In this document: piece after piece, positions 12,600-41,583 of the stretch | How positions within the stretch are numbered: the stretch's first letter is position 1 | How the letters are laid out: every line of letters begins with the position of its first letter | Assembly (NCBI GenBank): GCA_031261985.1 | Contig: JAISIR010000001.1 | Coordinates: 72,009 to 136,008 of the forward strand | DNA length: 64,000 nucleotides | DNA from: Clostridiales bacterium | Lineage (GTDB): Bacteria; Bacillota; Clostridia; Monoglobales; WRBX01 | Direction of reading: 5' to 3' | Made by a program: the position numbers and the translations under genes | The notes under the pieces: generated by a model | Database searches by the model: none | Seen by the model: the letters and a program-made list of their open reading frames with translations, nothing else | What the model was told of the DNA's origin: nothing

Positions 12600-13439
12600 T
12601 TATATCTCAAGCTCGCCATTATACACAACATTGGCATCGCCTGTCATAAACACTGTCTCGTCGGTATAATTAATTTTAAGATTGCCGCCTATTAATTTAA
12701 CGGTTATGTCCTCACCTTTATTGCAATGTCCATTTAGTACAGAAGCGACAGCCGCGGCACACGCACCTGTTCCACATGCAAAAGTCTCGCCGCTTCCACG
12801 CTCCCACACGCGCATTTTAATGGTCTTGCTATCTACCACTTGAACAAACTCGGTATTAACTTGCTCGGGGAATATCTCGTTATTTTCGAACTTAGGTCCT
12901 AAAGTAGCTAAATCTAACGCATCCACATTATTGCAGAATACAACGCAATGGGGGTTACCCATAGACACACATGTGATGTTATAATCGGCATCATCTATTT
13001 GAACTTGTCTATCAACAACGCTATCGCCGCTTAAGTCGACAGGGATATCGGCAGGGTTTAAAATTGCGCTACCCATATCTACCTTAACGGTGGTAACCTT
13101 TCCATTAGTTGTAGAAAGTTCCAATGTTTTAATGCCGCTTAGAGTGTCCACTTTAATAACGTCTTTTTTGATAATTTTGTTATCGTATAAATACTTACCA
13201 ACGCAGCGGATACCATTGCCGCACATTTTACCCTCGCTACCGTCTTGGTTAAAGATTCGCATTTTAGCGTCGGCGGTGTCTGATGGCATAATCAAAATTA
13301 TCCCGTCACTGCCGACTCCTTTTCGACGGTCAGAGAAATTAACAGCTAGTGACTCGGGGCTTTCTATTTGTTGGTCGAAGCAATTTATGTATATATAATC
13401 GTTGCCGCAACCGTGCATTTTAGTGAATTTAATTTTCAT
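12600..13439 (-). other. dapF: DapF module with retained internal SD and ATG (possible independent translation)
   Basis: On the minus strand ..AATATGAGGAGCAACATGATGAAAATT.. places AGGAG 4 nt before ATG 13442 and 7 nt before ATG 13439. The product would start MKIKFTKMHGCGNDY, a normal DapF N-terminus. Confidence 0.55.
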
Positions 13440-16400
13440 CATGTTGCTCCTCATATTATTAATATCTACAAGCTCTGTAGTTTTTTCGGTATACTTAGTC
13501 AATAAACTATCGGCAATTGCGCCGGCGGTGTCGATGCTTGTAAGGCAAGGGATTCCTAAAAATACCGATTTACGCCTTAGCTTTACATCGTCTAATGTCG
13601 GGTCGCGCCCCTTTGTAGATGTCGAAATAATATAGTTAACTTTGCCTGTGTCTAGTAGATTGTCCGAATTAAGCTCGGGGTTCTCGTGAATCTTATTTAT
13701 CAAAGTAATTTTTAAGCCAGATGCCTCTAGTACCTTTTTGGTACCCTCGGTAGCGAATAATCTAAAGCCCATTCGTGCAAACTTCCTAGCTATATCAACG
13801 GTTTCTAATTTGTCGGAATCACGAACTGTTATAAACACGCCACCACTGCGACGCAATTTATACCCTGCTGCAACCAAGCCTTTGTACAATGCTTCTTGTA
13901 AGTTTTTACCGATGCCTAGCACTTCGCCTGTCGATTTCATCTCGGGACCTAAATGAGTATCTACATTAACTAATTTTTCGAAAGAGAAAACCGGGATTTT
14001 AACAGCGGTGTATGGTGGGACCTTGGCGATTCCTTCTTGCTGCAATTTCTCGCCAAGCGATGTTCGTGTAGCTAAATCGCACATTGGCACACCTGTTACC
14101 TTGCTTATATATGGTACCGTCCTAGATGCACGCGGGTTAACCTCGATAACATAAATATCGTTATGGCTTATGATATATTGGATATTAATTAGCCCTTGAA
14201 CTTTAAGCTCAAGCGAAATTCGCTTAGTCATATCATAAATCCGCTCGGCAAGCTCGTCGTTTATATGAGGCGCAGGGTAGACGGCAATGCTATCACCGCT
14301 ATGTACTCCTGTACGCTCAACATGCTCCATAATGCCAGGGATAAGAACCTTTTCGCCGTCGCAGATGCTGTCGACTTCTATTTCTAGTCCGCTTAAATAT
14401 TTATCTATTAGAACGGGGTTCTCTTGCTTTTGTCTAAAGATAATCTCCATATATTCTTTGATATCATCGTCCGAGTAAGCGATTATCATGTTTTGCCCTC
14501 CAAGCACGTAGCTAGGGCGCATTAGCACAGGGTAGCCAAGGTTATGAGCAGAATCTAACGCCTCTTGCAGAGTAAAGACGGTATAGCCTTTTGGGCGCGC
14601 TATGTTTAACTTTTCTAAGAAGGCGTCAAAACGCTCTCTATCCTCGCAAATATCTATACTATCGGCAGATGTGCCTAAAATTTTAACGCCGCGTTTTTGA
14701 AGCTCGTTAGTAAGTTTAATTGCGGTGCCACCACCAAACGATACTATAACGCCTATCGGCTTTTCAATCTCGATAACGCCCATTACGTCATCAATTGTTA
14801 GCGGCTCGAAATATAGGCGGTCGGCGGTGTCAAAATCGGTTGAGACGGTCTCGGGGTTATTATTAATAACGACGGTTTCGTAACCCATTTGTTTTAACGT
14901 CCATACACAATGCACGCATGCGTAATCGAACTCGATACCTTGGCCGATTCGGATGGGTCCGCTGCCTAGTACTACAACCGTCGGCTTTTTATTTTTATCG
15001 ATAAACTCTAGTGCTTCGTTCTCTTCCGCATTATGAATCGAGTAAAAATAAGGGGTTTGAGCGGCAAATTCCGCGCTACATGTATCTACCATTTTATACA
15101 TGAATGGTTTAGGGGTAGAATCGTAAGCGCCTGTAACAATGTTATTTATTTTGTGTAAGAACCACTTATCTATTAAGGTTAGCTCGTGGATTTTATCGAC
15201 CGATACACCACGTTTAAGCAGCTGATACACCTCGAAAAGACGCTCGTCGGTTGGGTTTTGGATATTATTTAATAATTCCTCATCGGTCTTTTGCGCTATC
15301 TTGGGTAGGTCAAGCGATTTTGCACTAATCTCTGCCCCGCGAACCGCCTTAACAATGGCTAGTTCAAAGCTATCGGCAATAGACATAACCTCGCCCGTCG
15401 CTTTCATTTGCGTGCCAAGCTCTTTTTTAGCGTACACAAATTTATCGAAAGGCCATTTAGGGAACTTAACGGCAACATAATCGAGTGTAGGCTCAAAGGC
15501 GGCATAAGTGTTTCCTGTAACGTCGTTTTTAATCTCGTCTAAGTTATAGCCGATAGCAATTTTAGTTGCAACCTTGGCAATAGGGTAGCCAGTTGCTTTA
15601 GATGCTAAGGCAGACGAACGCGAAACGCGTGGGTTAACCTCGATAACTGCGTAATCGAACGAATTAGGGTTAAGGGCAAATTGGCAATTGCAACCGCCTT
15701 CTACTTTAAGCGCCTGGATAATATCTAACGCCGCGCTGCGCAACATTTGATACTCTTTATCGGCTAACGTAACAGCGGGAGCTATAACTATGCTATCGCC
15801 TGTGTGAATGCCTACAGGGTCGAAGTTTTCCATTGAGCAAACAGCAATAGCGTTGCCGGCTTTATCGCGCATTATCTCGAACTCAATCTCTTTCCATCCT
15901 GCAATAGATTGCTCTACCAAAATTTGGTTAATGGGCGACATTGCTATACCATTACTTGCTATATGCTTAAGCTCTGCCTCGGTTTTGGCGATTCCGCCAC
16001 CGCTGCCGCCTAGGGTAAATGCAGGGCGAACTATAATAGGATAGCCAATTTCTTCAGCAAAATCTAACGCATCATCTACATGCTCGGTAACAATAGAGGG
16101 GATAGTAGGTTGACCTATAGATGCCATTGTATTTTTAAACATCTGCCTATCTTCGGATTTATCGATAGTCTCGGGGTTAGAGCCAAGTAGGCGGATATTG
16201 TGCTTGTTAAGGAATCCCTCACGCGCTAGTTGCATGCAAAGGTTAAGACCCGTTTGACCGCCTAGTCCAGATAAAATGCTATCGGGGCGTTCTTTAATTA
16301 TAATTCGTTTTATAGTGTTAAGGGTAAGCGGCTCGATATAAATTTTATCTGCCATTGCATTATCGGTCATAATTGTTGCCGGGTTAGAGTTAGCAAGTAC

Positions 16401-16532
16401 AATCTCGATACCTGCGTCTTTTAACACGCGGCAGGCTTGAGTTCCTGCATAGTCGAACTCGGCGGCTTGACCTATAACAATTGGCCCGCTACCTATAACA
16501 AGTGTTTTTTTAATAGATGTATCTAGTGGCAT
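12600..16532 (-). CDS. carB: Carbamoyl-phosphate synthase large subunit fused in frame to diaminopimelate epimerase (CarB-DapF)
   Basis: 1310-aa ORF. Residues 1-~1030 hold two ATP-grasp halves plus an MGS-like domain of CarB. The last ~280 aa are DapF (KMHGCGNDY, MCGNGIRC, FACGTGA). No stop codon separates them. Confidence 0.85.
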   Translation of the reverse strand: MPLDTSIKKTLVIGSGPIVIGQAAEFDYAGTQACRVLKDAGIEIVLANSNPATIMTDNAMADKIYIEPLTLNTIKRIIIKERPDSILSGLGGQTGLNLCMQLAREGFLNKHNIRLLGSNPETIDKSEDRQMFKNTMASIGQPTIPSIVTEHVDDALDFAEEIGYPIIVRPAFTLGGSGGGIAKTEAELKHIASNGIAMSPINQILVEQSIAGWKEIEFEIMRDKAGNAIAVCSMENFDPVGIHTGDSIVIAPAVTLADKEYQMLRSAALDIIQALKVEGGCNCQFALNPNSFDYAVIEVNPRVSRSSALASKATGYPIAKVATKIAIGYNLDEIKNDVTGNTYAAFEPTLDYVAVKFPKWPFDKFVYAKKELGTQMKATGEVMSIADSFELAIVKAVRGAEISAKSLDLPKIAQKTDEELLNNIQNPTDERLFEVYQLLKRGVSVDKIHELTLIDKWFLHKINNIVTGAYDSTPKPFMYKMVDTCSAEFAAQTPYFYSIHNAEENEALEFIDKNKKPTVVVLGSGPIRIGQGIEFDYACVHCVWTLKQMGYETVVINNNPETVSTDFDTADRLYFEPLTIDDVMGVIEIEKPIGVIVSFGGGTAIKLTNELQKRGVKILGTSADSIDICEDRERFDAFLEKLNIARPKGYTVFTLQEALDSAHNLGYPVLMRPSYVLGGQNMIIAYSDDDIKEYMEIIFRQKQENPVLIDKYLSGLEIEVDSICDGEKVLIPGIMEHVERTGVHSGDSIAVYPAPHINDELAERIYDMTKRISLELKVQGLINIQYIISHNDIYVIEVNPRASRTVPYISKVTGVPMCDLATRTSLGEKLQQEGIAKVPPYTAVKIPVFSFEKLVNVDTHLGPEMKSTGEVLGIGKNLQEALYKGLVAAGYKLRRSGGVFITVRDSDKLETVDIARKFARMGFRLFATEGTKKVLEASGLKITLINKIHENPELNSDNLLDTGKVNYIISTSTKGRDPTLDDVKLRRKSVFLGIPCLTSIDTAGAIADSLLTKYTEKTTELVDINNMRSNMMKIKFTKMHGCGNDYIYINCFDQQIESPESLAVNFSDRRKGVGSDGIILIMPSDTADAKMRIFNQDGSEGKMCGNGIRCVGKYLYDNKIIKKDVIKVDTLSGIKTLELSTTNGKVTTVKVDMGSAILNPADIPVDLSGDSVVDRQVQIDDADYNITCVSMGNPHCVVFCNNVDALDLATLGPKFENNEIFPEQVNTEFVQVVDSKTIKMRVWERGSGETFACGTGACAAAVASVLNGHCNKGEDITVKLIGGNLKINYTDETVFMTGDANVVYNGELEI

Positions 16533-21214: not shown

Positions 21215-21395
21215 AAACTTTGCCTGACGGCAAAGAGATAAAAGAGAAGAGTTAAGAGAGAAAAGTTAAGGAAGTTTTGCTATCGCAAAACAATTTAAGG
21301 CAAAGTTTTGTACTTTTCATTTTTCTCTTTTCGTTCTTCACTTTTCACTTATACTTCACTTCAATACTTACTAAAAATTTCGGGGGAGAATTAAC

Positions 21396-22496
21396 ATGAT
21401 TATTGGGATAACAGGTGGCAGCGGAAGTGGAAAGTCTACCTTGTCAAGAGAGCTTGCTAAACGTGGATTCACCGTGATTGATGCGGATAAAGAGTATCAT
21501 CATTTGCAAGAGAACGACCTTGAGTTGCGGCAAGAGCTCATAGATAATTTTGGGACGGCGGAGCGAGCGCAACTTAGGAATATTGTATTTGCTGATAAAG
21601 AAAAAGCCTCTCTTTTACGCGAGGTTACATACAAGCACATCACAAAAGCGATAGATAAAAAGCTAGCCTTAGGTGGCGACATTGTTTTAGATGCTTCGGG
21701 GTTGTTTGAATCGGGCTACGATGCTAAATGTGACAAAACTATAGCGGTGCTTGCCAACCGTGAGGTTAGGATAAACCGTCTTTTATTGCGCGATGGCTTA
21801 ACCAGACAGGCGATATTGAGCAGGTTGCAAGCTCAGCCTAGTGATGAGTTTTATACAAAAAGTGCCGATATAATTGTAAATAATAACGGAAATGGATTTA
21901 ATATTGATAGCATCCTTGGTAAACTGAATCAAAAAATTGCTATATATGGCGGAACCTTTTCGCCTCCTACTTTAGGGCATTTAGATGTCATAAAAAGAGC
22001 GGTGGCACTTTACGATAAACTGTATGTGGTAGTCCTTAAAAACCCTACTAAAGACCCTATTTTTACCGAAGAAGAGCGTTTGAATATGCTTAAAAAGATT
22101 ACCGAAGATTTGCCTAATGTAGAAGTTGAACGGTATGATGGTTTACTTGCGGAATATGCTAAAGAAAAGGGCGCAAATTTCTCGGTTCGTGGTCTTCGCG
22201 ACCAGTTCGATTTAAAGTCCGAACACGAAATGTATCAATTAAATGCTCAAATAGCAAAGGAAGAGTTTGAGTTTAGTTTAGATACTAATTTTTCACCTAC
22301 TACTTTAGAAAATTTTTACACCAGCTCTAGCATGGTGCGCGAACTATTTAAATCGGGTTCATATAAAGTTGCCTCTAAATATGTAGACGCGCGGATTTAT
22401 GACGATATTTTTAATAAGTATAGGGCAATTAATCTAGAGAAGAATAATGCTCAAAGCAGCGCGGCAATCTCTAGGATAGCGCCTCAAACCCCTTAA
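21396..22496 (+). CDS. Bifunctional dephospho-CoA kinase / phosphopantetheine adenylyltransferase fusion (CoaE-CoaD)
   Basis: The N-terminal ~180 aa carry the CoaE P-loop IIGITGGSGSGKST. The C-terminal ~180 aa carry CoaD motifs IAIYGGTFSPPTLGHLDVIKRA, RGLRD and TSSSMVRE. No start codon or SD at the junction. Confidence 0.85.
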   Translation: MIIGITGGSGSGKSTLSRELAKRGFTVIDADKEYHHLQENDLELRQELIDNFGTAERAQLRNIVFADKEKASLLREVTYKHITKAIDKKLALGGDIVLDASGLFESGYDAKCDKTIAVLANREVRINRLLLRDGLTRQAILSRLQAQPSDEFYTKSADIIVNNNGNGFNIDSILGKLNQKIAIYGGTFSPPTLGHLDVIKRAVALYDKLYVVVLKNPTKDPIFTEEERLNMLKKITEDLPNVEVERYDGLLAEYAKEKGANFSVRGLRDQFDLKSEHEMYQLNAQIAKEEFEFSLDTNFSPTTLENFYTSSSMVRELFKSGSYKVASKYVDARIYDDIFNKYRAINLEKNNAQSSAAISRIAPQTP

Positions 22497-22506
22497 TTAA
22501 TTTGGC

Positions 22507-23430
22507 TTAGTGGTTGTGGTTATGCCCAAAATGTGCGCCGCCGCCTGTGTTTTCTGCATTTACATGGCATTCGGGTCCGTCGCACTCTTCGTCTTCAAAC
22601 TCGATTTCTATGCTACTATGGCTAATGCCATGCTCGGCAAGCTCGGTTTTTATGAACGACTTTATTGCTACAATATCCTCGCGCGCGATATCCTTACTAA
22701 TAATCGCGTGAAGTGTTATATATTTGTTGACACCGTCTAGGCTCCACAAGTGTATATGATGAATATCGCGAATGTTATTATTACTTAAAATATGTTTTTT
22801 TAAATCGTCCATGTTTATATCGGTGGGCGATTTTTCTAAAAATACCTCGAATATTTTTTTGATATTTTTTAGCACATTAAACGATATAAAAATTGCTATT
22901 AGTATCGAAAGAATAGGGTCAAGGATTGGCAAATTAAATATCTTCATTACAATGCCAACCACTAAAACTGCTGCCCAGCCCAAGACATCTTCTAGCATGT
23001 GAAGGCTTATAGCGCGCTCGTTTAGGCTGTGGTTGCGCGAGGTTTTTAGCACTGCCACGCCGTTTACCATAAAGCCTAGCACCGCCAAAATTAGCACGCC
23101 GTTGTAGTCGATATCTGCCGGAGTAAACAAGCGGGGGATAGCCCCTGCCACCGCGATAATTGAGGTTGCAAGCAAAAAGATGGAACATATAAGCGCGCCT
23201 AAAACTGAGAACCTGCCATAGCCATAGGTGTAGTTTTTATTAGGTTGACGCTCGGATTTCCGTTCTAGACCCCAAGAGACTAATATCGAAATACTATCGC
23301 CAAAGTCGTGAAGTGAATCGGTAATTATGGCGATACTATTGGTGTAAAAGCCGCCGACAAGCTCGATAATTGCGAATATAAAGTTTAGCAAAAATGCCAA
23401 ACGAATATTTTTAGTAGATTTTTTTTGCAT
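22507..23430 (-). CDS. Cation diffusion facilitator (CzcD/ZitB-type) divalent-metal efflux transporter
   Basis: Six TM spans, HDFGDS and HMLEDVLG metal-site motifs, and a His-rich C-terminus GGGAHFGHNHNH. Confidence 0.9.
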   Translation of the reverse strand: MQKKSTKNIRLAFLLNFIFAIIELVGGFYTNSIAIITDSLHDFGDSISILVSWGLERKSERQPNKNYTYGYGRFSVLGALICSIFLLATSIIAVAGAIPRLFTPADIDYNGVLILAVLGFMVNGVAVLKTSRNHSLNERAISLHMLEDVLGWAAVLVVGIVMKIFNLPILDPILSILIAIFISFNVLKNIKKIFEVFLEKSPTDINMDDLKKHILSNNNIRDIHHIHLWSLDGVNKYITLHAIISKDIAREDIVAIKSFIKTELAEHGISHSSIEIEFEDEECDGPECHVNAENTGGGAHFGHNHNH

Positions 23431-23578
23431 TACGTTACCACCTTTTGGATTAATTATAATACATAAATATTAAAAGGTCAAGTATTTTAAGACAAAAAAA
23501 TAAGCGGATTGAATCCGTTTTTAAGATATTATTTATATTACAAAATAGTTAAAATATTGTTGCTATTGTTAGTTCGTG

Positions 23579-23607
23579 TTGACTTTTGTCAGTTTTTTTG
23601 ATATAAT
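23579..23607 (+). promoter_or_regulatory. Promoter of small-peptide mRNA, copy 1
   Basis: TTGACT, 17 nt, then TATAAT. Confidence 0.6.
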
Positions 23608-23684
23608 ACCTTTGGTAGTTCAACAAGGGGATATTCAGCTTGTGATGGTTGGCTTCCTTGCTCAACAGCAAGGAGGTGGTGCCG

Positions 23685-23756
23685 ATGAAGAAGTTTATAA
23701 TTGCTTTTGTAATTATACTTATTCTGATGGCGTTCTTTGCTACTCCGGTAGTTTAG
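23685..23756 (+). CDS. 23-aa hydrophobic peptide MKKFIIAFVIILILMAFFATPVV (candidate type I toxin, copy 1)
   Basis: GGAGGTG SD lies 8 nt before the ATG and there is a consensus promoter upstream. A paralogous ORF is conserved at 37713..37784. Missed by the 60-aa-minimum ORF track. Confidence 0.45.
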   Translation: MKKFIIAFVIILILMAFFATPVV

Positions 23757-23759
23757 AGT

Positions 23760-23862
23760 AAAAAAACAACCGTCTTACCCTTGTAAAGTTGACGGTTGTG
23801 ATAATAACACTATAGAAATTTGCAAGGAAGCTAGCCGTTATAATCGGTTTTCCCCTTTTGTT
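23760..23862 (-). ncRNA. Predicted ~100-nt antisense RNA (candidate antitoxin, copy 1)
   Basis: Bounded by minus-strand TTGACA-17-TATAAT (23869..23897) and a hairpin ACAACCGTC/GACGGTTGT followed by T7 on the minus strand only. Ends are inferred, not measured. Confidence 0.4.
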
Positions 23863-23868
23863 ACTAAC

Positions 23869-23897
23869 ATTATACTATATGTTTTATTATTTGTCAA
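23869..23897 (-). promoter_or_regulatory. Convergent antisense promoter, copy 1
   Basis: Minus strand reads TTGACA (23897-92), 17 nt, then TATAAT (23874-69). Confidence 0.6.
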
Positions 23898-23920
23898 TAG
23901 TTTGTTGTATAAATATTTTC

Positions 23921-24145
23921 TTAAACTCTTGGCATATTCATACCTTTTGATAGGTTTTTATTTTGGACCACGCCCTTTGCAGAAGTAGAATTTTTTGCAT
24001 AATTAATCCTCTCTGCCATTGTAGGGTCTAACATTTTATTTTTAGCTGCAAGTGAATCGGTAATTTTGACAGCTAACCCTTTACCTGCGTTTAACGCTCT
24101 TTGGCTTGCATCTATTTTTTGTGCATGTCTTTTTAATACGTTCAT
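23921..24145 (-). CDS. Hypothetical small basic protein (74 aa)
   Basis: ORF lies 30 nt downstream of the 113-aa ORF on the same strand, probably in one transcription unit. No family recognised. Confidence 0.5.
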   Translation of the reverse strand: MNVLKRHAQKIDASQRALNAGKGLAVKITDSLAAKNKMLDPTMAERINYAKNSTSAKGVVQNKNLSKGMNMPRV

Positions 24146-29183: not shown

Positions 29184-29302
29184 AAAATTACGCTCCTTTT
29201 AGGTGATTTATTCCTGCATTTAATCGCACAAAATATCTATAATTTGTAAAACTATTTTTTTGATATATCGCCAAACTTGGCGATTTTAATATACTCGTTT
29301 AA

Positions 29303-29331
29303 ATTATAATCTATTTTATAAATAAAGTCAA
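29303..29331 (-). promoter_or_regulatory. Promoter inside 73-nt unit A (drives ABC ATPase/permease)
   Basis: Minus strand reads TTGACT, 17 nt, then TATAAT. Confidence 0.6.
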
Positions 29332-29337
29332 TAGTGC

Positions 29338-29370
29338 AAAAAAAGGTGCCGATTAAGCAATCGACACCTT
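29338..29370 (-). terminator. Intrinsic terminator in 73-nt unit A (ends the 558-aa gene)
   Basis: Minus strand reads AAGGTGTCGATT-GCTT-AATCGGCACCTT followed by T7. Confidence 0.7.
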
Positions 29371-29512: not shown

Positions 29513-31189
29513 TTAATACCACCCGCTGCTTTGAGGGTATAATTCTCTGGCAATTTTTTGCAAGATTTCTAACTTTTTATCATTGAATTTATTTTGTTCT
29601 TCATCATTTTTGTTGTAAAGCTTGGCAAACGTATTAAATCGCTCTTTAAATTCGTTGTCACAATAAATATCATAATGAATTAAATATTTAAATTCGGATA
29701 AAATTTCTTTTAGTTTTTCTTCATCTAGATTTAACGTATAAAAATAAACAAAGCATTCCTCAACAAATTCACAGTTTTGATTTACTTCTGTGATAACTTT
29801 ATCTTTATTATATTCCCGTACGTCGAATTCATCAAATAAAAACAGAAGATATTTAACCGCTTTTTCTTTAAAGTCCCCATCATTTAAAGCCTTTTCTAAT
29901 TTGTCTTTGAGGTTACTATTGGCTATTATATTATCAATAATATTTTTATAAAAAGTGGTTGTGTTTCCAATTATTGAAGCGTCAGTGGTATAGTATCCAA
30001 AATAATATGCATATATAATGAGGAATATATTAGTTAGATTAATATCTATATAATTGTTATTATATAATGAGCGATTATTTAAATCACGTTCAAATTGATT
30101 GTACCCATAAATAGATTTAATTAGATTTTTATCATTATTTTTTATGCACTCGATAATATAATAAAAATAGTTAAATTCTTTAATTTCGTATTTTGTTTTT
30201 GGTAATATTGGCATAAATGTGTGTGGTTTATAATTAACTTTACTGTAGTCTTTTTCTTCGTTAATCCAAAGATAATGAGATTCGTCTAAAACATGTTTTA
30301 ATAGATCATTTTTTTGCTTTTGATTAATCAATTTGTTTTGTGTTATTGAATTGTGTAAATCATAAGAAATATACGCTGTAGAAGCCGTTAATTTTTTTCT
30401 TCTATCAAGATTCTCAAAAATTGCTTCTAGTGCTGTATGCAATATGTGGCCGTTAAATTCGTAATCTAAATTGACAAATTCTATTAAATCAATAGTTTTA
30501 CTGATTATATCATGGTCTTCGTTTAAGTAAATTTTTTTATAATTAGATATTAAATATAATTGTTCAACTAAAAATAGCGCTTCTGATATTTCCTTTGGTT
30601 CTTTACTCTCTATAGCATCGTTTAGCATATCAACAAAGAATTCGCCAGTCTCCAAGCTATGGTTTTTAGACCTTTGTATTGTCTTTTTTATCATATAATC
30701 TCTAATTTCACCTTTGATTTTTTCTTCTGCTCCTAAAATTTCTAGCGTATCTTTTATTAGGTAAATATTGGCTATCACTAATAAAAAGAATATGTAAGCC
30801 ATTGTGTTAAAGTATTGAAACTCTAGGCAAAACCAAGAGGCTAAAACTAAAACAAGCATGACGCTTAACATTATCGCTCGTCTAAAAGGTACTATGTTTT
30901 TATATGAATAGACATATTTTGCAACGGACATTCCATAAAACTTTTTATCGTTAATACTAGAAACTAACGCCAATACACTAGGTGCTAAAACCGCAATTGT
31001 AGACATTACTTGAAAGAGCGTACCATAGATATTAAGCTTATCTTGAATATCGTAGTTGGTATAAAACTTGGCAGGCAAAGTTATAATGCTTTTGTCTACA
31101 CAAAATGGTATAATCGTAATTACAATTAAAAGTATAAAAATACTCCATTGCATAATGCTATAAATTTTTAATTTGCTGATTTTTGTCAT
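29513..31189 (-). CDS. Orphan membrane protein: four N-terminal TM helices plus ~400-aa soluble K/N/Y-rich domain
   Basis: 558-aa uninterrupted ORF, visibly more AT-rich than both flanks. Flanked by a duplicated 73-nt terminator+promoter unit. No family recognised. Confidence 0.7.
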   Translation of the reverse strand: MTKISKLKIYSIMQWSIFILLIVITIIPFCVDKSIITLPAKFYTNYDIQDKLNIYGTLFQVMSTIAVLAPSVLALVSSINDKKFYGMSVAKYVYSYKNIVPFRRAIMLSVMLVLVLASWFCLEFQYFNTMAYIFFLLVIANIYLIKDTLEILGAEEKIKGEIRDYMIKKTIQRSKNHSLETGEFFVDMLNDAIESKEPKEISEALFLVEQLYLISNYKKIYLNEDHDIISKTIDLIEFVNLDYEFNGHILHTALEAIFENLDRRKKLTASTAYISYDLHNSITQNKLINQKQKNDLLKHVLDESHYLWINEEKDYSKVNYKPHTFMPILPKTKYEIKEFNYFYYIIECIKNNDKNLIKSIYGYNQFERDLNNRSLYNNNYIDINLTNIFLIIYAYYFGYYTTDASIIGNTTTFYKNIIDNIIANSNLKDKLEKALNDGDFKEKAVKYLLFLFDEFDVREYNKDKVITEVNQNCEFVEECFVYFYTLNLDEEKLKEILSEFKYLIHYDIYCDNEFKERFNTFAKLYNKNDEEQNKFNDKKLEILQKIARELYPQSSGWY

Positions 31190-31256
31190 TTAATTACCTC
31201 TTTTTTAATGTCGTTGCTAAAATTCTACAATTTTTAGCATAATATACCTTTTTTAA

Positions 31257-31285
31257 ATTATAATCTATTTAATAAATAAAGTCAA
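31257..31285 (-). promoter_or_regulatory. Promoter inside 73-nt unit B (drives the 558-aa orphan gene)
   Basis: Minus strand reads TTGACT, 17 nt, then TATAAT; identical to unit A apart from one spacer base. Confidence 0.6.
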
Positions 31286-31291
31286 TAGTGC

Positions 31292-31324
31292 AAAAAAAGG
31301 TGCCGATTAAGCAATCGACACCTT
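31292..31324 (-). terminator. Intrinsic terminator in 73-nt unit B (ends the RR-HK operon)
   Basis: Hairpin identical to unit A, followed by T7. Confidence 0.7.
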
Positions 31325-34736: not shown

Positions 34737-34827
34737 TGGCGGAGAAGGAGAGATTTGAACTCTCGCGCCGGTTACCCGACCTATACCCTTAGCAGGGGCA
34801 CCTCTTCGGCCTCTTGAGTACTTCTCC
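34737..34827 (-). tRNA. tRNA-Ser (anticodon GCT), type II, CCA encoded
   Basis: The reverse complement folds with acceptor GGAGAAG/CTTCTCC, anticodon loop CTGCTAA, a long variable arm, T arm GAGAG TTCAAAT CTCTC, then G-CCA. Confidence 0.9.
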
Positions 34828-35816: not shown

Positions 35817-37475
35817 ATGAATATAAAACATTGCAATTGGCACAGTCATAAAAAATGTTGTAAATGTTGTGTGTGTTGCGCAGGCGGAGGTTCGGGTAGT
35901 GTGGGTCCGACAGGACCGACAGGACCGATGGGACCGACAGGGGCTACAGGCGCGATGGGGCCTAAAGGTGACACAGGTGCGACGGGCGAAACGGGTATAC
36001 AAGGTGTAGAAGGCGAGCAGGGGGTGCAAGGAATCGCTGGTAGCACGGGGCCGACAGGCGAGCGTGGCGAAAAGGGCGACACAGGGGCGAGTGGTGCGAC
36101 AGGGGCTACAGGCGAGCAAGGACTTCAAGGGATTCAGGGCATTCAGGGGATTCAAGGGGTAAAAGGGGACACAGGTGCGTCGGGCGAACGTGGGGAAACA
36201 GGAGCGACGGGAGCAACTGGGCTTCAGGGGATTCAAGGCGAGCAAGGTGTGGCAGGCGCGACGGGTGCTACAGGCGAGCGTGGAGAGAAAGGTGACACAG
36301 GCGACACAGGTCCGCAGGGATTACAAGGAGCCCAGGGTGAGACAGGTCCGCAAGGTATTCAAGGCGTACCGGGCGCGGCGGGCGAAGTTGGCTCGTTAAA
36401 AGGTGCATATGACACTTTAGAAGATTTACAGGCAGCACACCCGACAGGGAATGCTGGCGATGCGTATTATATTCAACCAGACCTATACATATGGGACACG
36501 ACGACGAACTCGTGGCTTAACATTGGCGAAATTGCAGGGCCGCAGGGTGTGACAGGTCCGCAGGGGGTACAAGGCCCGCAAGGTGATACAGGGGCGACGG
36601 GACCTAAAGGCGACACAGGTGCAACTGGGGCGACTGGCAGCACTGGAGCAGCGGGATCGACAGGGGCAACAGGTGCGACGGGGTTGCAGGGCGTTCAGGG
36701 GATTCAAGGTGACACAGGAGCGACAGGCGAGCGTGGCGAGAAGGGGGATACCGGTGACACAGGTGCGCAAGGGGTTCAGGGGGAGCAAGGGATTCAAGGT
36801 ATACCAGGTGCGACGGGGGCGACTGGGGGCATTGGAGCAACAGGTGCGACGGGCGAGAAAGGTGACACAGGCGACACAGGTCCGCAGGGCATTCAGGGTG
36901 TGCAAGGAGTGCAGGGGGTTCAAGGCGTAGTAGGTCCGACGGGACCGACAGGAGCGGCTGGCGAGGCAGGGCCAATGGGACCGACGGGGGATACAGGACC
37001 GATGGGGTCGACAGGTCCGACGGGGACTTGTGATTGTTCGGCTTTAGAAGAGAGAATAACGAATCTGGAAACAGAAATAAGGACAATAGTATCGGAAATT
37101 ACGCCGTCGACAGTGCGGACGGCATTAACTGAGGAGCCGACACTTAGCGGGATAGGGACTAGCGTTATAAACACAGGCGACACCTTTAATTTTTGGGGGA
37201 CGAATGAACTGACTCAGGCGGCTTCGCTTAATAATGGGCAGACATACTATATTGCGACGTCTGACCAATTCCCTGAACTAAAGAACTACCAAGGCTCGCC
37301 GACTATTACCACCATGTGGATAGAGAAGCCCGACGGAACGACTCAGACGGTGCCTGTGTATTTTGATTCGAATGGGATATATTTTACGCCGTCGTCTTCG
37401 ATTAATAATTTGCCAATAGGCACATCGTTTAAGTTTACGCAGGCGTTGATTTTGGATAGCGGGGATATAAGTTAG
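35817..37475 (+). CDS. Collagen-like triple-helix repeat protein (BclA/exosporium-type) with Cys-rich N-terminus and globular C-terminal domain
   Basis: Two long G-X-T/G-X-Q triplet arrays are separated by a ~50-aa non-collagen insert. N-terminus is [13 protein letters not shown]-terminal heptad segment [16 protein letters not shown] precedes a ~130-aa beta-rich domain. Confidence 0.85.
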
Positions 37476-37605
37476 GAAAAATAATTGAGAATTGAGAATG
37501 CAGAATGCAGAAATAATGTAATAAATTTTCACTAACGCTCAAATTTACAAACATGCAAAAAATATTACAAAATAGTTAAATTATTGTTACTTTTGTTGGT
37601 TTATG

Positions 37606-37634
37606 TTGATTTTTATCGAAATATTAGATATAAT
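37606..37634 (+). promoter_or_regulatory. Promoter of small-peptide mRNA, copy 2
   Basis: TTGATT, 17 nt, then TATAAT. Confidence 0.6.
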
Positions 37635-37712
37635 ACTCTCGGTAGTATAATGAAGGGGATATTCAGCTTGTGACGGATTGCTTCCTTGCTCAACAGCAGG
37701 GAGGTGGTGCCG

Positions 37713-37784
37713 ATGAAGAAATTTATGATTGCTTTTGTAATTATACTTATTCTCGCGGCAATCTTTGCTACTCCTGTAATTTAG
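37713..37784 (+). CDS. 23-aa hydrophobic peptide MKKFMIAFVIILILAAIFATPVI (candidate type I toxin, copy 2)
   Basis: Paralog of 23685..23756 with the same SD context (GGGAGGTG), same length and only conservative substitutions. Confidence 0.45.
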   Translation: MKKFMIAFVIILILAAIFATPVI

Positions 37785-37789
37785 AGTAA

Positions 37790-37886
37790 CAAAAACAACC
37801 GTCGCATCTTTGGAAAGGGACGACGGTTGATATATTCACAATAATCCAAGGAAGCTAACCGAAACATTCGGTCTTCCCCTTTTGTT
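37790..37886 (-). ncRNA. Predicted ~100-nt antisense RNA (candidate antitoxin, copy 2)
   Basis: Minus-strand TTGACA-17-TATAAT (37893..37921), and a hairpin CAACCGTCG/CGACGGTTG followed by a T-run on the minus strand. Ends are inferred. Confidence 0.4.
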
Positions 37887-37892
37887 ACTACC

Positions 37893-37921
37893 ATTATACT
37901 ACATAATTAATCATTTGTCAA
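37893..37921 (-). promoter_or_regulatory. Convergent antisense promoter, copy 2
   Basis: Minus strand reads TTGACA (37921-16), 17 nt, then TATAAT (37898-93). Confidence 0.6.
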
Positions 37922-37927
37922 TATTTT

Positions 37928-39022
37928 TTATCTAGGCGCGACCATATAGAGCATTTTAGCAGTCGCAAGCCTCATTATATGTTCTAGCACTTCAGGATTA
38001 TTCGTGTTTTCGATTGCAGCTACAATTTCTGGCGCAATCTTTACCTCTGGTTTATTGTTTGGCTTATCCTCGCGTGCCTTTTCTAAAACAGCGGCGACAC
38101 TTTTTCGCGTAACGCGTTTTTTGCTTTCAAGAATCGGCTTAATTTCCTCTAGTTTTTTAGGACTAATCCAATACTTATTGCTATTATCTTTAGCGTAAGC
38201 GTCTTTTAATGCCTCAACACTTTTTATTCCCGCTTTATACAAATGGAATTCGGTAATATCACCAAGTTTTAAAGTAGTAAGAGGGGTCTTCTTTTGCTGA
38301 ATCGCCTCGACGTAAGCCTCGATATCTTTTAAGCCGTCAGAATTAAATATCTCGCTTAATATTTCAGGCTTATTTTGATATGTTTTTACTAAATCTTTTT
38401 CTTTAAATATTCCGTTATAATTCAAGTAGTAGATATTACCAGAGCCTAGCACATTGACGTCTAAAAAACCTTTAGGTGTCATGTCATTTTTGTACATACA
38501 TTCCACTATTTTTGTAATCAGACTTTTTTCTACTTTTGCTTTACGCAACTTTGATATAATACTAGATGTTTTGGCTGCATCTTTAAAATCGTTCATATTC
38601 TTAATACCTATAGAATGCAACGCAGCAACAACATCATCAGCGCGAACATCATTTTTGAAGTAAGTTCTTAGACGAAGGTCGCGAGGTTGATATTGTGATA
38701 ACTCTGGAAGTTCTTCTAACACGTTAAAAGCACCGTGAATTCTGCGAGCAATACGATTTGCATCATAATCTTTAAAAATCTCTTTATGCTCGCTGGCTTT
38801 TAAGAATTCTTCTATTTCTTCTTCACACTTTGGTTTACCGTCGTTAAGACCATAACGCTCTTGCAATGGCAGGCGATATTCAATATCTAGCTCAGATATT
38901 TTGTCTTTTATAAACTGGATCACATCAAAATTGTAATCGGTTAAAGACACACCACCTTCTTTAACTAAATGTTTGAATAAATTTTCGTAATTTTTCTCGT
39001 ACATAAGTTTTAATCTCCCCAT
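37928..39022 (-). CDS. Hypothetical protein (364 aa) with a sigma-region-4-like RYGLNDGKP segment
   Basis: Long ORF. The ATG at 39004 (MYEKNY), preceded by GGGGAGA, is an equally good start. Served by promoter TTGACT-17-TATAAT at 39046..39074. Confidence 0.6.
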   Translation of the reverse strand: MGRLKLMYEKNYENLFKHLVKEGGVSLTDYNFDVIQFIKDKISELDIEYRLPLQERYGLNDGKPKCEEEIEEFLKASEHKEIFKDYDANRIARRIHGAFNVLEELPELSQYQPRDLRLRTYFKNDVRADDVVAALHSIGIKNMNDFKDAAKTSSIISKLRKAKVEKSLITKIVECMYKNDMTPKGFLDVNVLGSGNIYYLNYNGIFKEKDLVKTYQNKPEILSEIFNSDGLKDIEAYVEAIQQKKTPLTTLKLGDITEFHLYKAGIKSVEALKDAYAKDNSNKYWISPKKLEEIKPILESKKRVTRKSVAAVLEKAREDKPNNKPEVKIAPEIVAAIENTNNPEVLEHIMRLATAKMLYMVAPR

Positions 39023-39180: not shown

Positions 39181-41583
39181 ATGCCCCAAGGCGCGACGCA
39201 AACTAACGAGAATCATGATAACTCTGAAATTAAGGCGGTTATAATGTGTGGAGGTGGCGGGACTAGGCTGCGCCCCCTTACTTGTGATATCCCTAAACCC
39301 ATGTTACCTATTATGGGCAAACCTGCGCTGTTGCATATAATAAACCTGCTTAAAAAGCATGGAATTACCAATATAATTATTACTTTGCAATATCTGCCCC
39401 AAGTAGTTATAGATTATTTTGGTGACGGTCGTGATTTTGGCGTGAACATCGAATATTTTATCGAGCGTGTGCCGCTTGGGACGGCTGGCTCGGTTAAGAA
39501 TGCCCAAAGCTCGCTTAGTGATACATTTTTAGTTATAAGTGGCGATAGTGTGACAGATATCGATTTAACGCGCGCGTTAGATTATCATTCTACTAAAAAT
39601 GCCGATGCCACCCTTGTGCTTACCACCGTTGATAAGCCTTATGAGTATGGCGTGGTCGAGACCGAGAGCGATGGGCATATTAATAAGTTCTTAGAGAAGC
39701 CCGATTGGACGGAAGTGTGGACTAACACCGTTAATACAGGAACATATATACTTAAAAAAAGTGTGCTTAATAAGTTCTCGGCTAACGAGATGTTCGATTT
39801 CGCATCCGACCTCTTCCCTATGATGCTTAGTGATGGTGATGAGATTTATGGGTACACAGCCGCTGGATATTGGTGCGATATTGGCGATGCTAAAGCGTAC
39901 GCTATGTGTCATAACGATATATTAGACGGTAAAATTGTGTTGGATATTGATGCCGATTACACTTCGGTTGATTCATCTAAAGCTAATATTCACAAAGATG
40001 CTATAGTAGGCAGCCCGTGTTATATTGGCGAGGGCGTAAAAGTTGGTGCAGGTGCGTATGTATCTGCCTATAGTGTGTTAGGCGATAATTGCAAGGTAGG
40101 CGATAACGCTCGGGTTAACAGCTCTATTTTTCATGATAGGGTAACAGTTGGCGCGTCGACGAGTATAAGTAATTCTATTGTGTGTCAAAATAGCAAGATA
40201 GGAGATTTTACCACGCTGCACGATGCTAGCATTATAGGCGCTAACTGTGTTGTAGATGATATGGTAACGGTTCACCCTTCAATTAAAATTTGGTCGAACA
40301 AGCATATCGAACAAGGGGCGAATGTGCACTCTAACCTTGTATGGGGCGACCATTACACGCGCAAGCTATTTGGCGATGATGCAATTGTAGGCGAGGTTAA
40401 TGTAGATATAACTCCCGAATTTGCCACGCGGCTTGGGACTACCTTTAGCGCGTTATTCAAAGGTGGGCATATAGGTATAGGGTATGGCAGCGGCGGGGCT
40501 TTGTTAATGCTTAAAAATGCCTTTATAGCTGGCTTACTATCTAGTGGTGCCGAAGTGTACGATTTTGATGTGCAAACGCTGCCGACGGCGCGGAATGCTA
40601 TCGCCTTTTACAAGCTAGATGGCGGGGTGCATTTAGCATATAATCCCGATGATGAAAAACCTAAGCTAACCATTAGTTTTTTAGATTCAAACGGTGGTAA
40701 TATAGTTAGGGCTAAAGAGCGAAAGCTAGAGCAAATGTTTAATCGTGAGGATTACACTCGTGCCGAAGCAGAAGAGATTGCCAATGTAAATAAACTGACA
40801 GATTATAATCTGTTTTATCTGCACAGGTTGCTTAATTACGATGACACAGCCAAGCAAATAGACCGCATGCGTATGCCAATTAGTGTAGAGTGTAATAATA
40901 AGGTAGCGTGCGAGCTGGCTAACACCGTCCTTAAAAAGATAGGCGCGGGCGTGTATACATCTGCCGATGAAGTGAATAATATGGTAACAGCGCACATTGA
41001 TGATTTAGGTGAGAATGTTGTTTTATATGACGAAAAAGGGCATAAACTAACGTCGCAGCAATATTTGTATTTGCAATGTAAAATGATACTAGAGTGGGAT
41101 AAAGCTCAAAAAATAGTCGTGCCTATGACGGCGAGCAATTGGATAGACGATTTAGCAGCTAGGCATGGGGCCGAAGTGTTGCGGAGTAAAATTACTAAGT
41201 CAGACATTCAGCAAACGCTATTGCAAAACAAGCTGGATTATCAGTTTAAGCTAATGTTTGATGCTAACTTTATGTTGCTTCAATTGTGCCGATATATGAA
41301 TATAAATCGCATGAAGCTGTGGGATATTGTATCCACCCTGCCGACTATGTATTTTGCAAGCAAGGAGATTGAAGTGGACGACGAAGTGAAATCGCAAGTT
41401 CTAGGTAATTTAGCGCGCAGAGTAGACGGGATATTTGATTCTAGCGAGCTAAACGGTGGGCTTAAACTAGCGCGAGATAACGGTTGGGTAATGGTTAGCC
41501 CAGTTAAGCATACTAATAAGTTTAAAGTTGTAGCCGAGGGCGCAACGCAAGAGATAGCCGATGAGTTAACAGGTATGATTTAG
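39181..41583 (+). CDS. Sugar-1-phosphate nucleotidyltransferase + left-handed beta-helix + phosphohexomutase-like domain fusion
   Basis: N-terminal GGGGTRLRPLT..PKPMLP signature. Hexapeptide-repeat region near aa 270-370. The C-terminal ~400 aa resemble PGM/PMM domains. GAGGAGG SD. Confidence 0.8.
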   Translation: MPQGATQTNENHDNSEIKAVIMCGGGGTRLRPLTCDIPKPMLPIMGKPALLHIINLLKKHGITNIIITLQYLPQVVIDYFGDGRDFGVNIEYFIERVPLGTAGSVKNAQSSLSDTFLVISGDSVTDIDLTRALDYHSTKNADATLVLTTVDKPYEYGVVETESDGHINKFLEKPDWTEVWTNTVNTGTYILKKSVLNKFSANEMFDFASDLFPMMLSDGDEIYGYTAAGYWCDIGDAKAYAMCHNDILDGKIVLDIDADYTSVDSSKANIHKDAIVGSPCYIGEGVKVGAGAYVSAYSVLGDNCKVGDNARVNSSIFHDRVTVGASTSISNSIVCQNSKIGDFTTLHDASIIGANCVVDDMVTVHPSIKIWSNKHIEQGANVHSNLVWGDHYTRKLFGDDAIVGEVNVDITPEFATRLGTTFSALFKGGHIGIGYGSGGALLMLKNAFIAGLLSSGAEVYDFDVQTLPTARNAIAFYKLDGGVHLAYNPDDEKPKLTISFLDSNGGNIVRAKERKLEQMFNREDYTRAEAEEIANVNKLTDYNLFYLHRLLNYDDTAKQIDRMRMPISVECNNKVACELANTVLKKIGAGVYTSADEVNNMVTAHIDDLGENVVLYDEKGHKLTSQQYLYLQCKMILEWDKAQKIVVPMTASNWIDDLAARHGAEVLRSKITKSDIQQTLLQNKLDYQFKLMFDANFMLLQLCRYMNINRMKLWDIVSTLPTMYFASKEIEVDDEVKSQVLGNLARRVDGIFDSSELNGGLKLARDNGWVMVSPVKHTNKFKVVAEGATQEIADELTGMI

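Follow-up and report, generated by a model that had tools for sequence, protein, structure and literature searches.

The 64,000 nucleotides (nt) of Clostridiales bacterium contig JAISIR010000001.1 analysed here (positions 72,009 to 136,008, below called the window and numbered from its first letter) contain two diverged copies of a compact, self-contained unit of ~370 base pairs (bp), which is probably a chromosomal type I toxin-antitoxin-like cassette of an undescribed family. Copy 2 lies at 37563-37925 and copy 1 at ~23535-23901; they are paralogues on the same strand, 14,028 nt apart. By sequence prediction each copy has a small (<60 amino acids, aa) hydrophobic peptide with one membrane span, and a cis antisense RNA gene with its own promoter and terminator that overlaps ~100 nt of the 3' untranslated region (UTR) of the peptide mRNA. 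In the predicted primary transcript the Shine-Dalgarno sequence (SD) is sequestered by an anti-SD (11 bp, 21/22 conserved, and readable also in P0121, a metagenomic homologue described below). To judge from published descriptions, this layout matches the hallmarks of Gram-positive type I families, whose antisense RNAs overlap the 3' end of the mRNA (PMC4147584, PMC8594479); a primary transcript that cannot be translated and has an anti-SD no more than 11 nt from the SD is described as a major type I hallmark (PMC6733600). The architecture is textbook for the class, and we expect that a new family of such cassettes is the probable label; what is new is the sequence family, the 23-residue tail-less peptide and the design that joins leader duplication to a complement of the anti-SD.

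Elements of the unit and their conservation

The first-pass annotation of copy 2 had claimed a paralogous module ~14 kb away in the same orientation with all functional elements retained. Formal alignment of the unit bore this out (81% identity over 371 columns), and each element is present in copy 2 at the coordinates given below, where an open reading frame is abbreviated ORF and identity to consensus refers to TTGACA-17-TATAAT.

Copy 2:
37563-37605, + strand: left end of the unit, preceding the + promoter; identity to copy 1 37/43, adjoining flank 36%
37606-37634, + strand: sigma-70-type promoter, TTGATT (37606-11), 17 nt, TATAAT (37629-34); 10/12 to consensus
37641-37886, + strand: predicted peptide mRNA, ~245 nt (72-nt 5'UTR, ORF, ~100-nt 3'UTR); ends inferred from the -10 box and the T-tract
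37680-37705, + strand: SD-sequestering hairpin, anti-SD GCTTCCTTGCT (37680-90), loop CAAC, SD arm AGCAGGGAGGT (37695-705); 11 bp
37713-37784, + strand: 23-codon ORF, MKKFMIAFVIILILAAIFATPVI; MKK and one hydrophobic span, candidate toxin or membrane peptide
37886-37787, - strand: predicted antisense RNA, ~100 nt, with a perfect promoter upstream
37796-37829, - strand: hairpin CAACCGTC(G)...(C)GACGGTTG, then UUUUUGUU on the minus strand; folding energy -16.9 kcal/mol plus U-tract
37847-37855, + strand: 3'UTR element CAAGGAAGC, read from the sequence as the exact reverse complement of the anti-SD GCTTCCTTG
37850-37886, + strand: predicted mRNA terminator, GGAAG..ACCGAA-ACA-TTCGGT-CTTCC, then CCTTTTGTT (CCUUUUGUU as RNA); -11.3 kcal/mol
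37921-37893, - strand: antisense promoter, TTGACA-17-TATAAT; 12/12 to consensus

Copy 1:
23535-23901, + strand: whole unit, aligned to copy 2
23579-23607, + strand: promoter, TTGACT-17-TATAAT, preceded by TG; 11/12 to consensus
~23614-23861, + strand: predicted peptide mRNA
23652-23677, + strand: SD hairpin, arms 21/22 identical to copy 2
23685-23756, + strand: 23-codon ORF, MKKFIIAFVIILILMAFFATPVV; same length as in copy 2
~23862-23758, - strand: predicted antisense RNA
23767-23798, - strand: hairpin with the same arms, then U7 on the minus strand; about -14 kcal/mol
23823-23831, + strand: 3'UTR element, aligned to copy 2
23897-23869, - strand: antisense promoter, TTGACA-17-TATAAT; 12/12 to consensus

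The two copy 2 promoters claimed earlier (TTGATT-17-TATAAT at 37606-37634, 10/12, and the minus-strand TTGACA-17-TATAAT at 37921..37893, 12/12) are both present, as is the claimed shared hairpin stem CAACCGTC/GACGGTTG, whose arms are identical between the copies at 16/16 positions. Sites with at least 11/12 identity to TTGACA-17-TATAAT number 16 in the 64 kb against 0.74 expected, a ~20-fold enrichment, and comparison of their positions with the ORF and tRNA lists placed most of them just upstream of ORFs or tRNA genes (e.g., 21080, 23453, 24648, 34878, 39046, and 41736). Because of this enrichment and placement, consensus matches look predictive in this genome. Only five sites in the window are perfect (12/12), and two of these are the antisense promoters.

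Divergence between the copies is not uniform, and the excess of conservation falls on the predicted elements. The promoter hexamers are identical at 23/24 positions (11/12 on the + strand and 12/12 on the antisense side), while the spacers are identical at 22/34 (10/17 and 12/17, respectively), with the 17-nt spacing constant in both promoters of both copies even though the spacer sequence changed. The loop of the shared hairpin is identical at 9/18 positions, and these values substantiate the earlier claim that the hairpin loop and inter-element spacers have drifted. The most conserved block is that formed by the anti-SD arm, loop, SD arm and SD-AUG spacer (32/33), and the 3' element with its T-tract is identical throughout (22/22). 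CAAGGAAGC is 100% conserved amid spacers that are 44% and 65% identical, and the spacer separating it from the hairpin is identical at 11/25 positions, including a 7-nt indel. The ORF nucleotides (63/72) are not especially conserved; what is kept there is length and hydrophobic character.

The elements named in the first-pass annotation have 11 differences in 132 columns, vs 60 in 239 in the rest of the unit (Fisher p = 5e-5). A set of elements taken from a two-copy comparison could be circular, so we repeated the test with elements defined on one copy by consensus or pairing. The contrast was again seen for hexamers vs spacers (p = 0.009), for terminator arms vs loop (p = 0.001) and for the SD hairpin block vs spacers and loops (p = 6e-6). 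Gene-conversion tracts would not be expected to leave such a pattern, since the identical blocks, of 6-26 bases, coincide with motif boundaries. The pattern supports selection on specific motifs, as predicted from these sequences.

Similarity breaks off sharply at both ends of the unit, the flanks outside it being 36% and 45% identical, which is the background level for AT-rich DNA here. No third copy was found in the 64 kb with a two-copy profile (nhmmer). The ends of each copy form an imperfect inverted repeat, 37557-37579 / 37907-37929 (78% complementary) in copy 2 and 23520-23554 / 23891-23925 (77% complementary) in copy 1, and these repeats may be the relic of an inverted duplication or a sign of mobility. 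The left end of the unit resembles a decayed antisense-promoter region (TATTACAAAATAG.. vs TATTGACAAATGA..). At both loci the unit begins 2-20 nt from the stop of a minus-strand gene (a 364-aa ORF ending at 37928 and a 74-aa ORF ending at 23921), so that transcription of those genes is expected to run into it.

That placement, in which the unit is the sole terminator for the minus-strand gene at both loci, would suit an intergenic repeat cassette that gives terminators and promoters between convergent genes and is perhaps mobile, its small ORF and SD being incidental. The sharp boundaries and imperfect terminal inverted repeats agree with this idea, as do the presence in the window of another duplicated terminator-promoter cassette (73 nt, at 29298 and 31252) and the fact that an independent assembly breaks within the unit, as at repeats. 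We nevertheless consider it improbable: no target-site duplication is visible in the sequence at either copy, the SD with its 8-nt spacing to the ATG and its anti-SD are the most conserved block, and the length and hydrophobic character of the ORF are preserved, with codon changes that are synonymous (4) or conservative (4) vs 0 synonymous and 6 mostly radical ones in the other frame. Moreover, the 23-residue peptide is conserved in a third sequence, P0121.

The peptide and its homologue

The predicted single membrane span of the peptide runs nearly to the C-terminus (hydrophobic fraction 0.87), and apart from those of copies 1 and 2 the 64 kb has no mini-ORF that is strongly hydrophobic and preceded by an SD. 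The claims of equal ORF length and of hydrophobic-for-hydrophobic differences both held. Eight codons are changed in the frame that begins with MKK, of which four are synonymous and four replace one hydrophobic residue by another (I>M, M>A, F>I, V>I), all four replacements being conservative. As far as two sequences can indicate, this pattern is what selection on the MKK frame would leave, and it does not fit selection on the alternative frame.

The alternative frame is that of an overlapping, Cys-rich ORF of 39 codons (37670-37789, GTG start), which could be proposed as the real product of the unit. It is open in both copies and has an SD-like AAGGGGA 10 nt upstream of the GTG, but T at the second codon positions of the MKK frame keeps it stop-free by composition. 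None of its changes is synonymous, as all six changed codons replace the residue, mostly radically (D>R, V>N, G>C), and in P0121 its residues TDCFLA are fused in frame with the MKK peptide, which means that this frame is not kept as a unit. We therefore regard it as a very improbable product. A minus-strand ORF of 37 aa (37781-37894) was likewise rejected as a product, since its start is inside the -10 box and copy 1 lacks it.

When 1.84 billion representative proteins were searched exhaustively with a profile, the single match was P0121 (E = 6.7e-8), a 37-aa "hypothetical protein" on a 14.6-kb contig of a JGI metagenome, with the sequence VTDCFLAISKGVLPMKKSLIAFVIIIVLMAIFAEPVI. The C-terminal 23 residues match the copy 2 peptide at 17/23 positions and stop at the same point; the cassette peptides have C-termini ...FATPVI and ...FATPVV, and P0121 has FAEPVI with one Glu. 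Its first residues, TDCFLA, are the translation of copy 2 ACGGATTGCTTCCTTGCT, which includes the anti-SD arm, and its SKG matches AGCAAGGGN, the SD arm. The called ORF of P0121 thus runs through both SD-hairpin arms in one frame, and TDCFLA is in frame with the MKK peptide because the loop is 3 nt rather than the 4 nt of copy 2. P0121 supports, at the level of a predicted protein, the existence of a third, independent member that keeps the length and character of the peptide, and it likewise supports the persistence of both hairpin arms while the loop changes. The sole homologue found, then, keeps the 23-residue hydrophobic ORF. The non-uniform divergence, the kept promoter spacing, the codon pattern and P0121 together favour the earlier claim of selection on a two-RNA module over an inert duplication.

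Other searches returned no further members, nor any DNA homologue of the unit. Queried with the copy 2 peptide, a word-indexed protein search gave no match; queried with P0121, it gave P0121 alone. Neither blastn of the unit nor tblastn of the peptide matched plasmid or phage records, and a scan of collections for the anti-SD/SD/ATG pattern gave 0 matches in genomes and 0 in metagenomes. Degenerate peptide patterns gave 0 matches in genomes and 0 in viral contigs, the first genome pattern having been too strict in that it would miss P0121 (Ser4, Glu20); five metagenome matches to such patterns were rejected as spurious (signal peptides or unrelated ORFs). The contigs of the closest relatives of the neighbouring CDF transporter (65% identity) have no such module, and a full-text literature search with peptide motifs found nothing relevant. 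The ORFs of the cassette (23, 32, 35, 39, and 61 aa) were absent from the public protein collection searched by exact look-up, so the peptide gene has apparently never been called.

The peptide has sub-threshold NCBIfam matches to the AimP and Phr N-terminal models (E = 0.02-0.25, with scores well under the cut-offs), which might suggest a pro-peptide for secreted signalling, as in Phr or AimP. Those matches span only the signal-peptide-like MKK and hydrophobic part, no mature peptide would be left since the peptide ends after its hydrophobic span, and no Rap-type or AimR-type receptor gene is beside either copy. We give this explanation very little credence.

RNA pairing and proposed regulation

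The predicted antisense RNA is complementary to the entire mRNA 3'UTR and ends 2-5 nt short of the stop codon, the U-tract of its terminator ending at 37785-37790 and the ORF stop codon occupying 37782-37784. The motif CAACCGTC/GACGGTTG of the shared hairpin has exactly two occurrences in the window, with 0 expected; in copy 2 its loop is 18 nt and an outer G..C lengthens the stem to 9 bp. No T-tract follows it on the + strand, U5-U7 being found on the minus strand alone. The shared hairpin is a predicted one-directional intrinsic terminator, which would stop the antisense RNA as well as transcripts that read through from the minus-strand gene upstream, and not the peptide mRNA. The predicted mRNA terminator is weaker than the antisense terminator, and its energy in copy 1 is -8 kcal/mol.

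In the mRNA leader, GGAGG is located 8 nt before the ATG and the anti-SD (GCUUCCUUGCU) is 4 nt upstream of the SD arm, with a pairing potential of 11 bp that includes 2-3 G-U pairs. The earlier claim that the two differences between the copies become G-U pairs was correct for A->G at 37698, which is in the arm and forms a U-G pair, and incorrect for G->T at 37679, which lies just 5' of the arm. In the predicted ensemble the probability that the SD is unpaired is 0.0, and the SD is still fully paired (P unpaired = 0.0, both copies) when the 3'UTR is blocked to mimic bound antisense RNA. Both RNAs are predicted to be more stably folded than shuffled sequences: the minimum free energy (MFE) of the copy 2 mRNA is -83.5 kcal/mol (z = -5.3), and that of the antisense RNA is -33 kcal/mol (z = -4.2).

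CAAGGAAGC in the 3'UTR, which doubles as the 5' half of the mRNA terminator stem, is a candidate competitor for the anti-SD. Two conformations, 5-7 kcal/mol apart, would then compete, anti-SD:SD (11 bp) and anti-SD:3' element (9-10 Watson-Crick pairs). For copy 1 the pairing of the anti-SD with the 3' element is the MFE structure (-87.5 vs -80.6 kcal/mol for the local one), while for copy 2 the local anti-SD:SD pairing is (-83.5 vs -78.2 kcal/mol, a forcing cost of +5.3); the RNAalifold consensus selected the anti-SD:3' element pairing. The copies share an identical 5' leader block, AAGGGGATATTCAGCTTGTGA, whose AAGGGGA pairs in both with a 3' UCCCCUU. An extended 5'-3' helix of 27 bp in the copy 1 MFE structure was not accepted, as it has no counterpart in the copy 2 MFE structure; the 9-bp core alone is retained. 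An action of the antisense RNA in trans on the SD is not supported against shuffles: GCUUCCUUG in the antisense RNA could pair with the SD, but the energy of the best duplex is no better than that of shuffles in copy 2 (p = 0.28) and marginally better in copy 1 (p = 0.02).

The leaders of the mRNA and the antisense RNA are collinear over their first ~80 nt (TTGAC..TATAAT..AGTA..A(A)GGGGA..19-20 nt..GCTTCCTTG), and their local-alignment score exceeds that of shuffles (p = 0.0015 in copy 1, p = 0.0185 in copy 2). Judging from these alignments, the cassette has the appearance of a promoter-leader unit duplicated in inverted orientation around the ORF, and such a duplication would explain the complementarity between 5'UTR and 3'UTR.

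We propose the following mechanism for a type I cassette of this kind, every step of which, transcription included, is inferred from sequence alone. The SD hairpin would form as soon as the SD is transcribed, leaving the ~245-nt mRNA translationally inert. The ~100-nt antisense RNA, made in excess from the stronger promoter, would pair with the whole 3'UTR, and the duplex would be cut by a double-strand-specific RNase, as in txpA/RatA. The duplex would also keep CAAGGAAGC off the anti-SD, so that the SD stays locked, which would resemble bsrG/SR4. Were the antisense RNA to fall, the mRNA would persist and its 3' element would compete for the anti-SD; the 23-residue single-span peptide would then be made and inserted into the membrane, where it is presumed to be harmful.

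A more elaborate reading is a three-way RNA switch built by inverted duplication, which we mention as a speculative proposal that is unlikely to hold as a whole. Under it, the antisense RNA would be a paralogue of the toxin's promoter and leader, with the 3'UTR an imperfect complement of the 5'UTR; CAAGGAAGC would be an anti-anti-SD by which the SD hairpin is opened after transcription has finished; the antisense RNA would repress translation allosterically, out-competing the 5'UTR for CAAGGAAGC and never touching the ribosome-binding site; and, in addition, the inverted-repeat ends and sharp boundaries would mark a self-contained unit able to move to new sites.

Several observations weigh against the interpretation of the unit as a type I cassette. 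At -8 to -11 kcal/mol the mRNA terminator is a weak one, and a simple terminator scan called none of the hairpins in either copy. The preferred conformation differs by copy (anti-SD:3' element in copy 1, anti-SD:SD in copy 2), and for this reason the switch model is not robust. When the single-sequence MFE fold is taken as a whole, conservation differs only weakly between its paired and its unpaired sites (p = 0.28 and 0.03), so that conservation cannot validly be assigned to the global MFE structure as a unit. RNAalifold identified no compensatory double substitutions between the two copies in either the mRNA or the antisense RNA, although six one-sided changes that retain pairing were counted in the mRNA and one in the antisense RNA, a count that is method-biased. 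In the mRNA terminator, an A-U<->U-A change that could be compensatory was left out of the count because it has a mismatch beside it in copy 1 and lies outside the predicted fold of that copy. The comparative base consists of two DNA copies from one genome and one protein-level homologue. No known toxin or antitoxin model matches (Rfam, Pfam, NCBIfam, PHROG, PADLOC), and the peptide is without the charged C-terminal tail that is usual for type I toxins, a feature typical of the class and not defining (PMC6563280).

These last two points, together with the location of both copies among ordinary chromosomal genes with no recognisable prophage or island, would also agree with a small membrane protein that is not a toxin, i.e., a benign accessory subunit or regulator of a membrane complex whose level is tuned by the antisense RNA. 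The sequence evidence for a two-RNA module fits such a protein equally well. We consider this a minor, though realistic, possibility, as no gene for a partner membrane complex is common to both loci, and tight SD sequestration, a perfect convergent antisense promoter and diverged, insulated duplicates are the reported pattern of type I toxin loci (PMC6733600, PMC8594479).

Known type I systems and genomic context

The search of the whole window against Rfam gave nothing relevant at the gathering score, and at E<10 the locus had only chance-level matches. Pfam, NCBIfam, PHROGs and PADLOC gave nothing above cut-off for both peptides and the neighbouring proteins. The cassette is outside the Fst/RNA II, SprA1/SprA1AS, txpA/RatA, bsrG/SR4 and Ibs/Sib families, since it fails the sequence models and at least one architectural feature of each.

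Closest in gene layout are Fst/RNA II (par of pAD1) and SprA1/SprA1AS (Staphylococcus aureus), which share with the cassette a Gram-positive host, convergent transcription, a small hydrophobic toxin and an antisense RNA that is 3' of the toxin mRNA with no overlap of the ORF (PMC8594479). The toxin's ribosome-binding site constitutes the controlled step in both (PMC4147584), as proposed here. Outside the overlap, however, their RNAs interact by way of 5' repeats that are complementary (DRa/DRb) or of a 5' domain over the initiation region, whereas the 5' leaders of the cassette are homologous and not complementary. They also have one shared terminator, in contrast to the two separate one-directional terminators of the cassette, whose 23-residue peptide has no charged tail and which had no Pfam, NCBIfam or Rfam match to them.

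Closest in proposed action are txpA/RatA (decay) and bsrG/SR4 (3' binding that tightens the SD stem) of Bacillus subtilis, whose convergent RNAs share a 3' overlap of 75-120 nt and whose antisense RNAs are not complementary to the initiation region; in the cassette the convergent layout, antisense length and overlap (~100 nt each) are similar. RatA acts by RNase III-dependent decay and the 3' binding of SR4 also lengthens an SD-trapping stem (PMC4147584), which is the mechanism we propose for the cassette. Unlike the antisense RNA of the cassette, which halts just before the stop codon, those of txpA/RatA and bsrG/SR4 overlap the ORF too (PMC8594479). The B. subtilis type I toxins have 28-60 residues and a charged C-terminus (PMC6563280), compared with 23 residues and an uncharged end here, and txpA/ratA and bsrG/SR4 are in prophage or skin elements (PMC4147584), while the cassette copies are among ordinary chromosomal genes. 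There was no model match to TxpA/RatA, BsrG/SR4, BsrE/SR5 or YonT/SR6, and no overlap of the ORF by the cassette antisense RNA.

Ibs/Sib of Escherichia coli combines a very short, almost purely hydrophobic and tail-less peptide with several diverged chromosomal copies, each with a cis antisense RNA, and its likeness to the cassette is one of peptide style. It differs in being proteobacterial and in that Sib covers the whole ibs ORF (PMC8594479), while the cassette antisense RNA covers the 3'UTR alone; there was no Rfam Sib match. The hok/Sok and aapA/IsoA mRNAs are alike in having an untranslatable primary transcript, a nearby anti-SD that traps the SD and a long-distance 5'-3' interaction (PMC6733600, PMC8594479). 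In those systems, found in Gram-negative bacteria (PMC8594479), the antisense RNA lies on the 5' side or across the ORF, and 3' trimming brings about activation, whereas the predicted target in the cassette is the 3' partner of the long-distance interaction. The Clostridioides difficile toxins (CD0956.2 etc.) are 34-59 aa long with a hydrophobic N-terminus and a Lys-rich, charged C-terminus (PMC6563280), a description that sets the cassette peptide apart.

Clostridial type I examples have been published almost entirely from C. difficile (PMC6563280), and the cassette would add a family from an uncultured Clostridiales lineage, with a candidate toxin that at 23 residues is shorter than those of B. 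subtilis (28-60 aa) and C. difficile (34-59 aa; PMC6563280). The conserved triad of anti-SD, SD and anti-SD complement offers a directly testable model of how a ribosome-binding site could be controlled by an antisense RNA that binds ~150 nt away, at the 3' end. Even with a non-toxic peptide, the unit would be a clean example of a micro-protein gene that is conserved, unannotated and under antisense control of its own.

The window has the content of ordinary chromosome (purA, purB, lysS, carB, genes for SLH-domain wall proteins and for a collagen-like protein, and three tRNA genes), and no phage or defence signal was found near either copy (PHROGs, PADLOC). The cation-efflux protein that neighbours the cassette is 100% identical to a protein of an NCBI MAG labelled Clostridiales bacterium, and its next-best relatives are only ~65% identical, which implies that the lineage is poorly sampled. 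To the left of copy 1 a minus-strand terminator-like hairpin, CGGATTCAATCCG with a T-run (23517..23505), precedes the 11/12 promoter of the cation-efflux gene (23481..23453), so that minus-strand transcription leaving copy 1 is probably insulated from that gene. A contig of Logan SRR14710920, from an independent assembly of the same strain, corresponds to window positions 21302-23723 with identical sequence. It ends within the ORF of copy 1, which would be expected of a repeat that interrupts the assembly of short reads.

The 73-nt direct repeat (29298-29370 and 31252-31324, 99% identical) flanks a 558-aa gene at 29513-31189. By eye, each repeat has a minus-strand terminator-like hairpin (AAGGTG..CACCTT, T-run) beside a near-consensus promoter, and it is a second duplicated regulatory cassette in the window. 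Three fused ORFs are unusual: 12600-16532 (carbamoyl-phosphate synthase large chain and diaminopimelate epimerase), 21396-22496 (dephospho-CoA kinase and a cytidylyltransferase-like domain) and 39181-41583 (nucleotidyl transferase/hexapeptide and phosphoglucomutase domain I). A tRNA-Ser(gct) gene on the minus strand (34737-34827) was called by ARAGORN, while the Rfam gathering-score scan gives only the other two tRNAs. Directly upstream of copy 2 is the gene for a 552-aa collagen-like protein of G-X-Y repeats with a Cys-rich N-terminus (CCKCCVCC; 35817-37475), which coincides with a local rise in GC content to 44%, and a short repetitive motif, GAGAATTGAGAATGCAGAATGCAGAA, is located between this gene and copy 2 (37478-37512).

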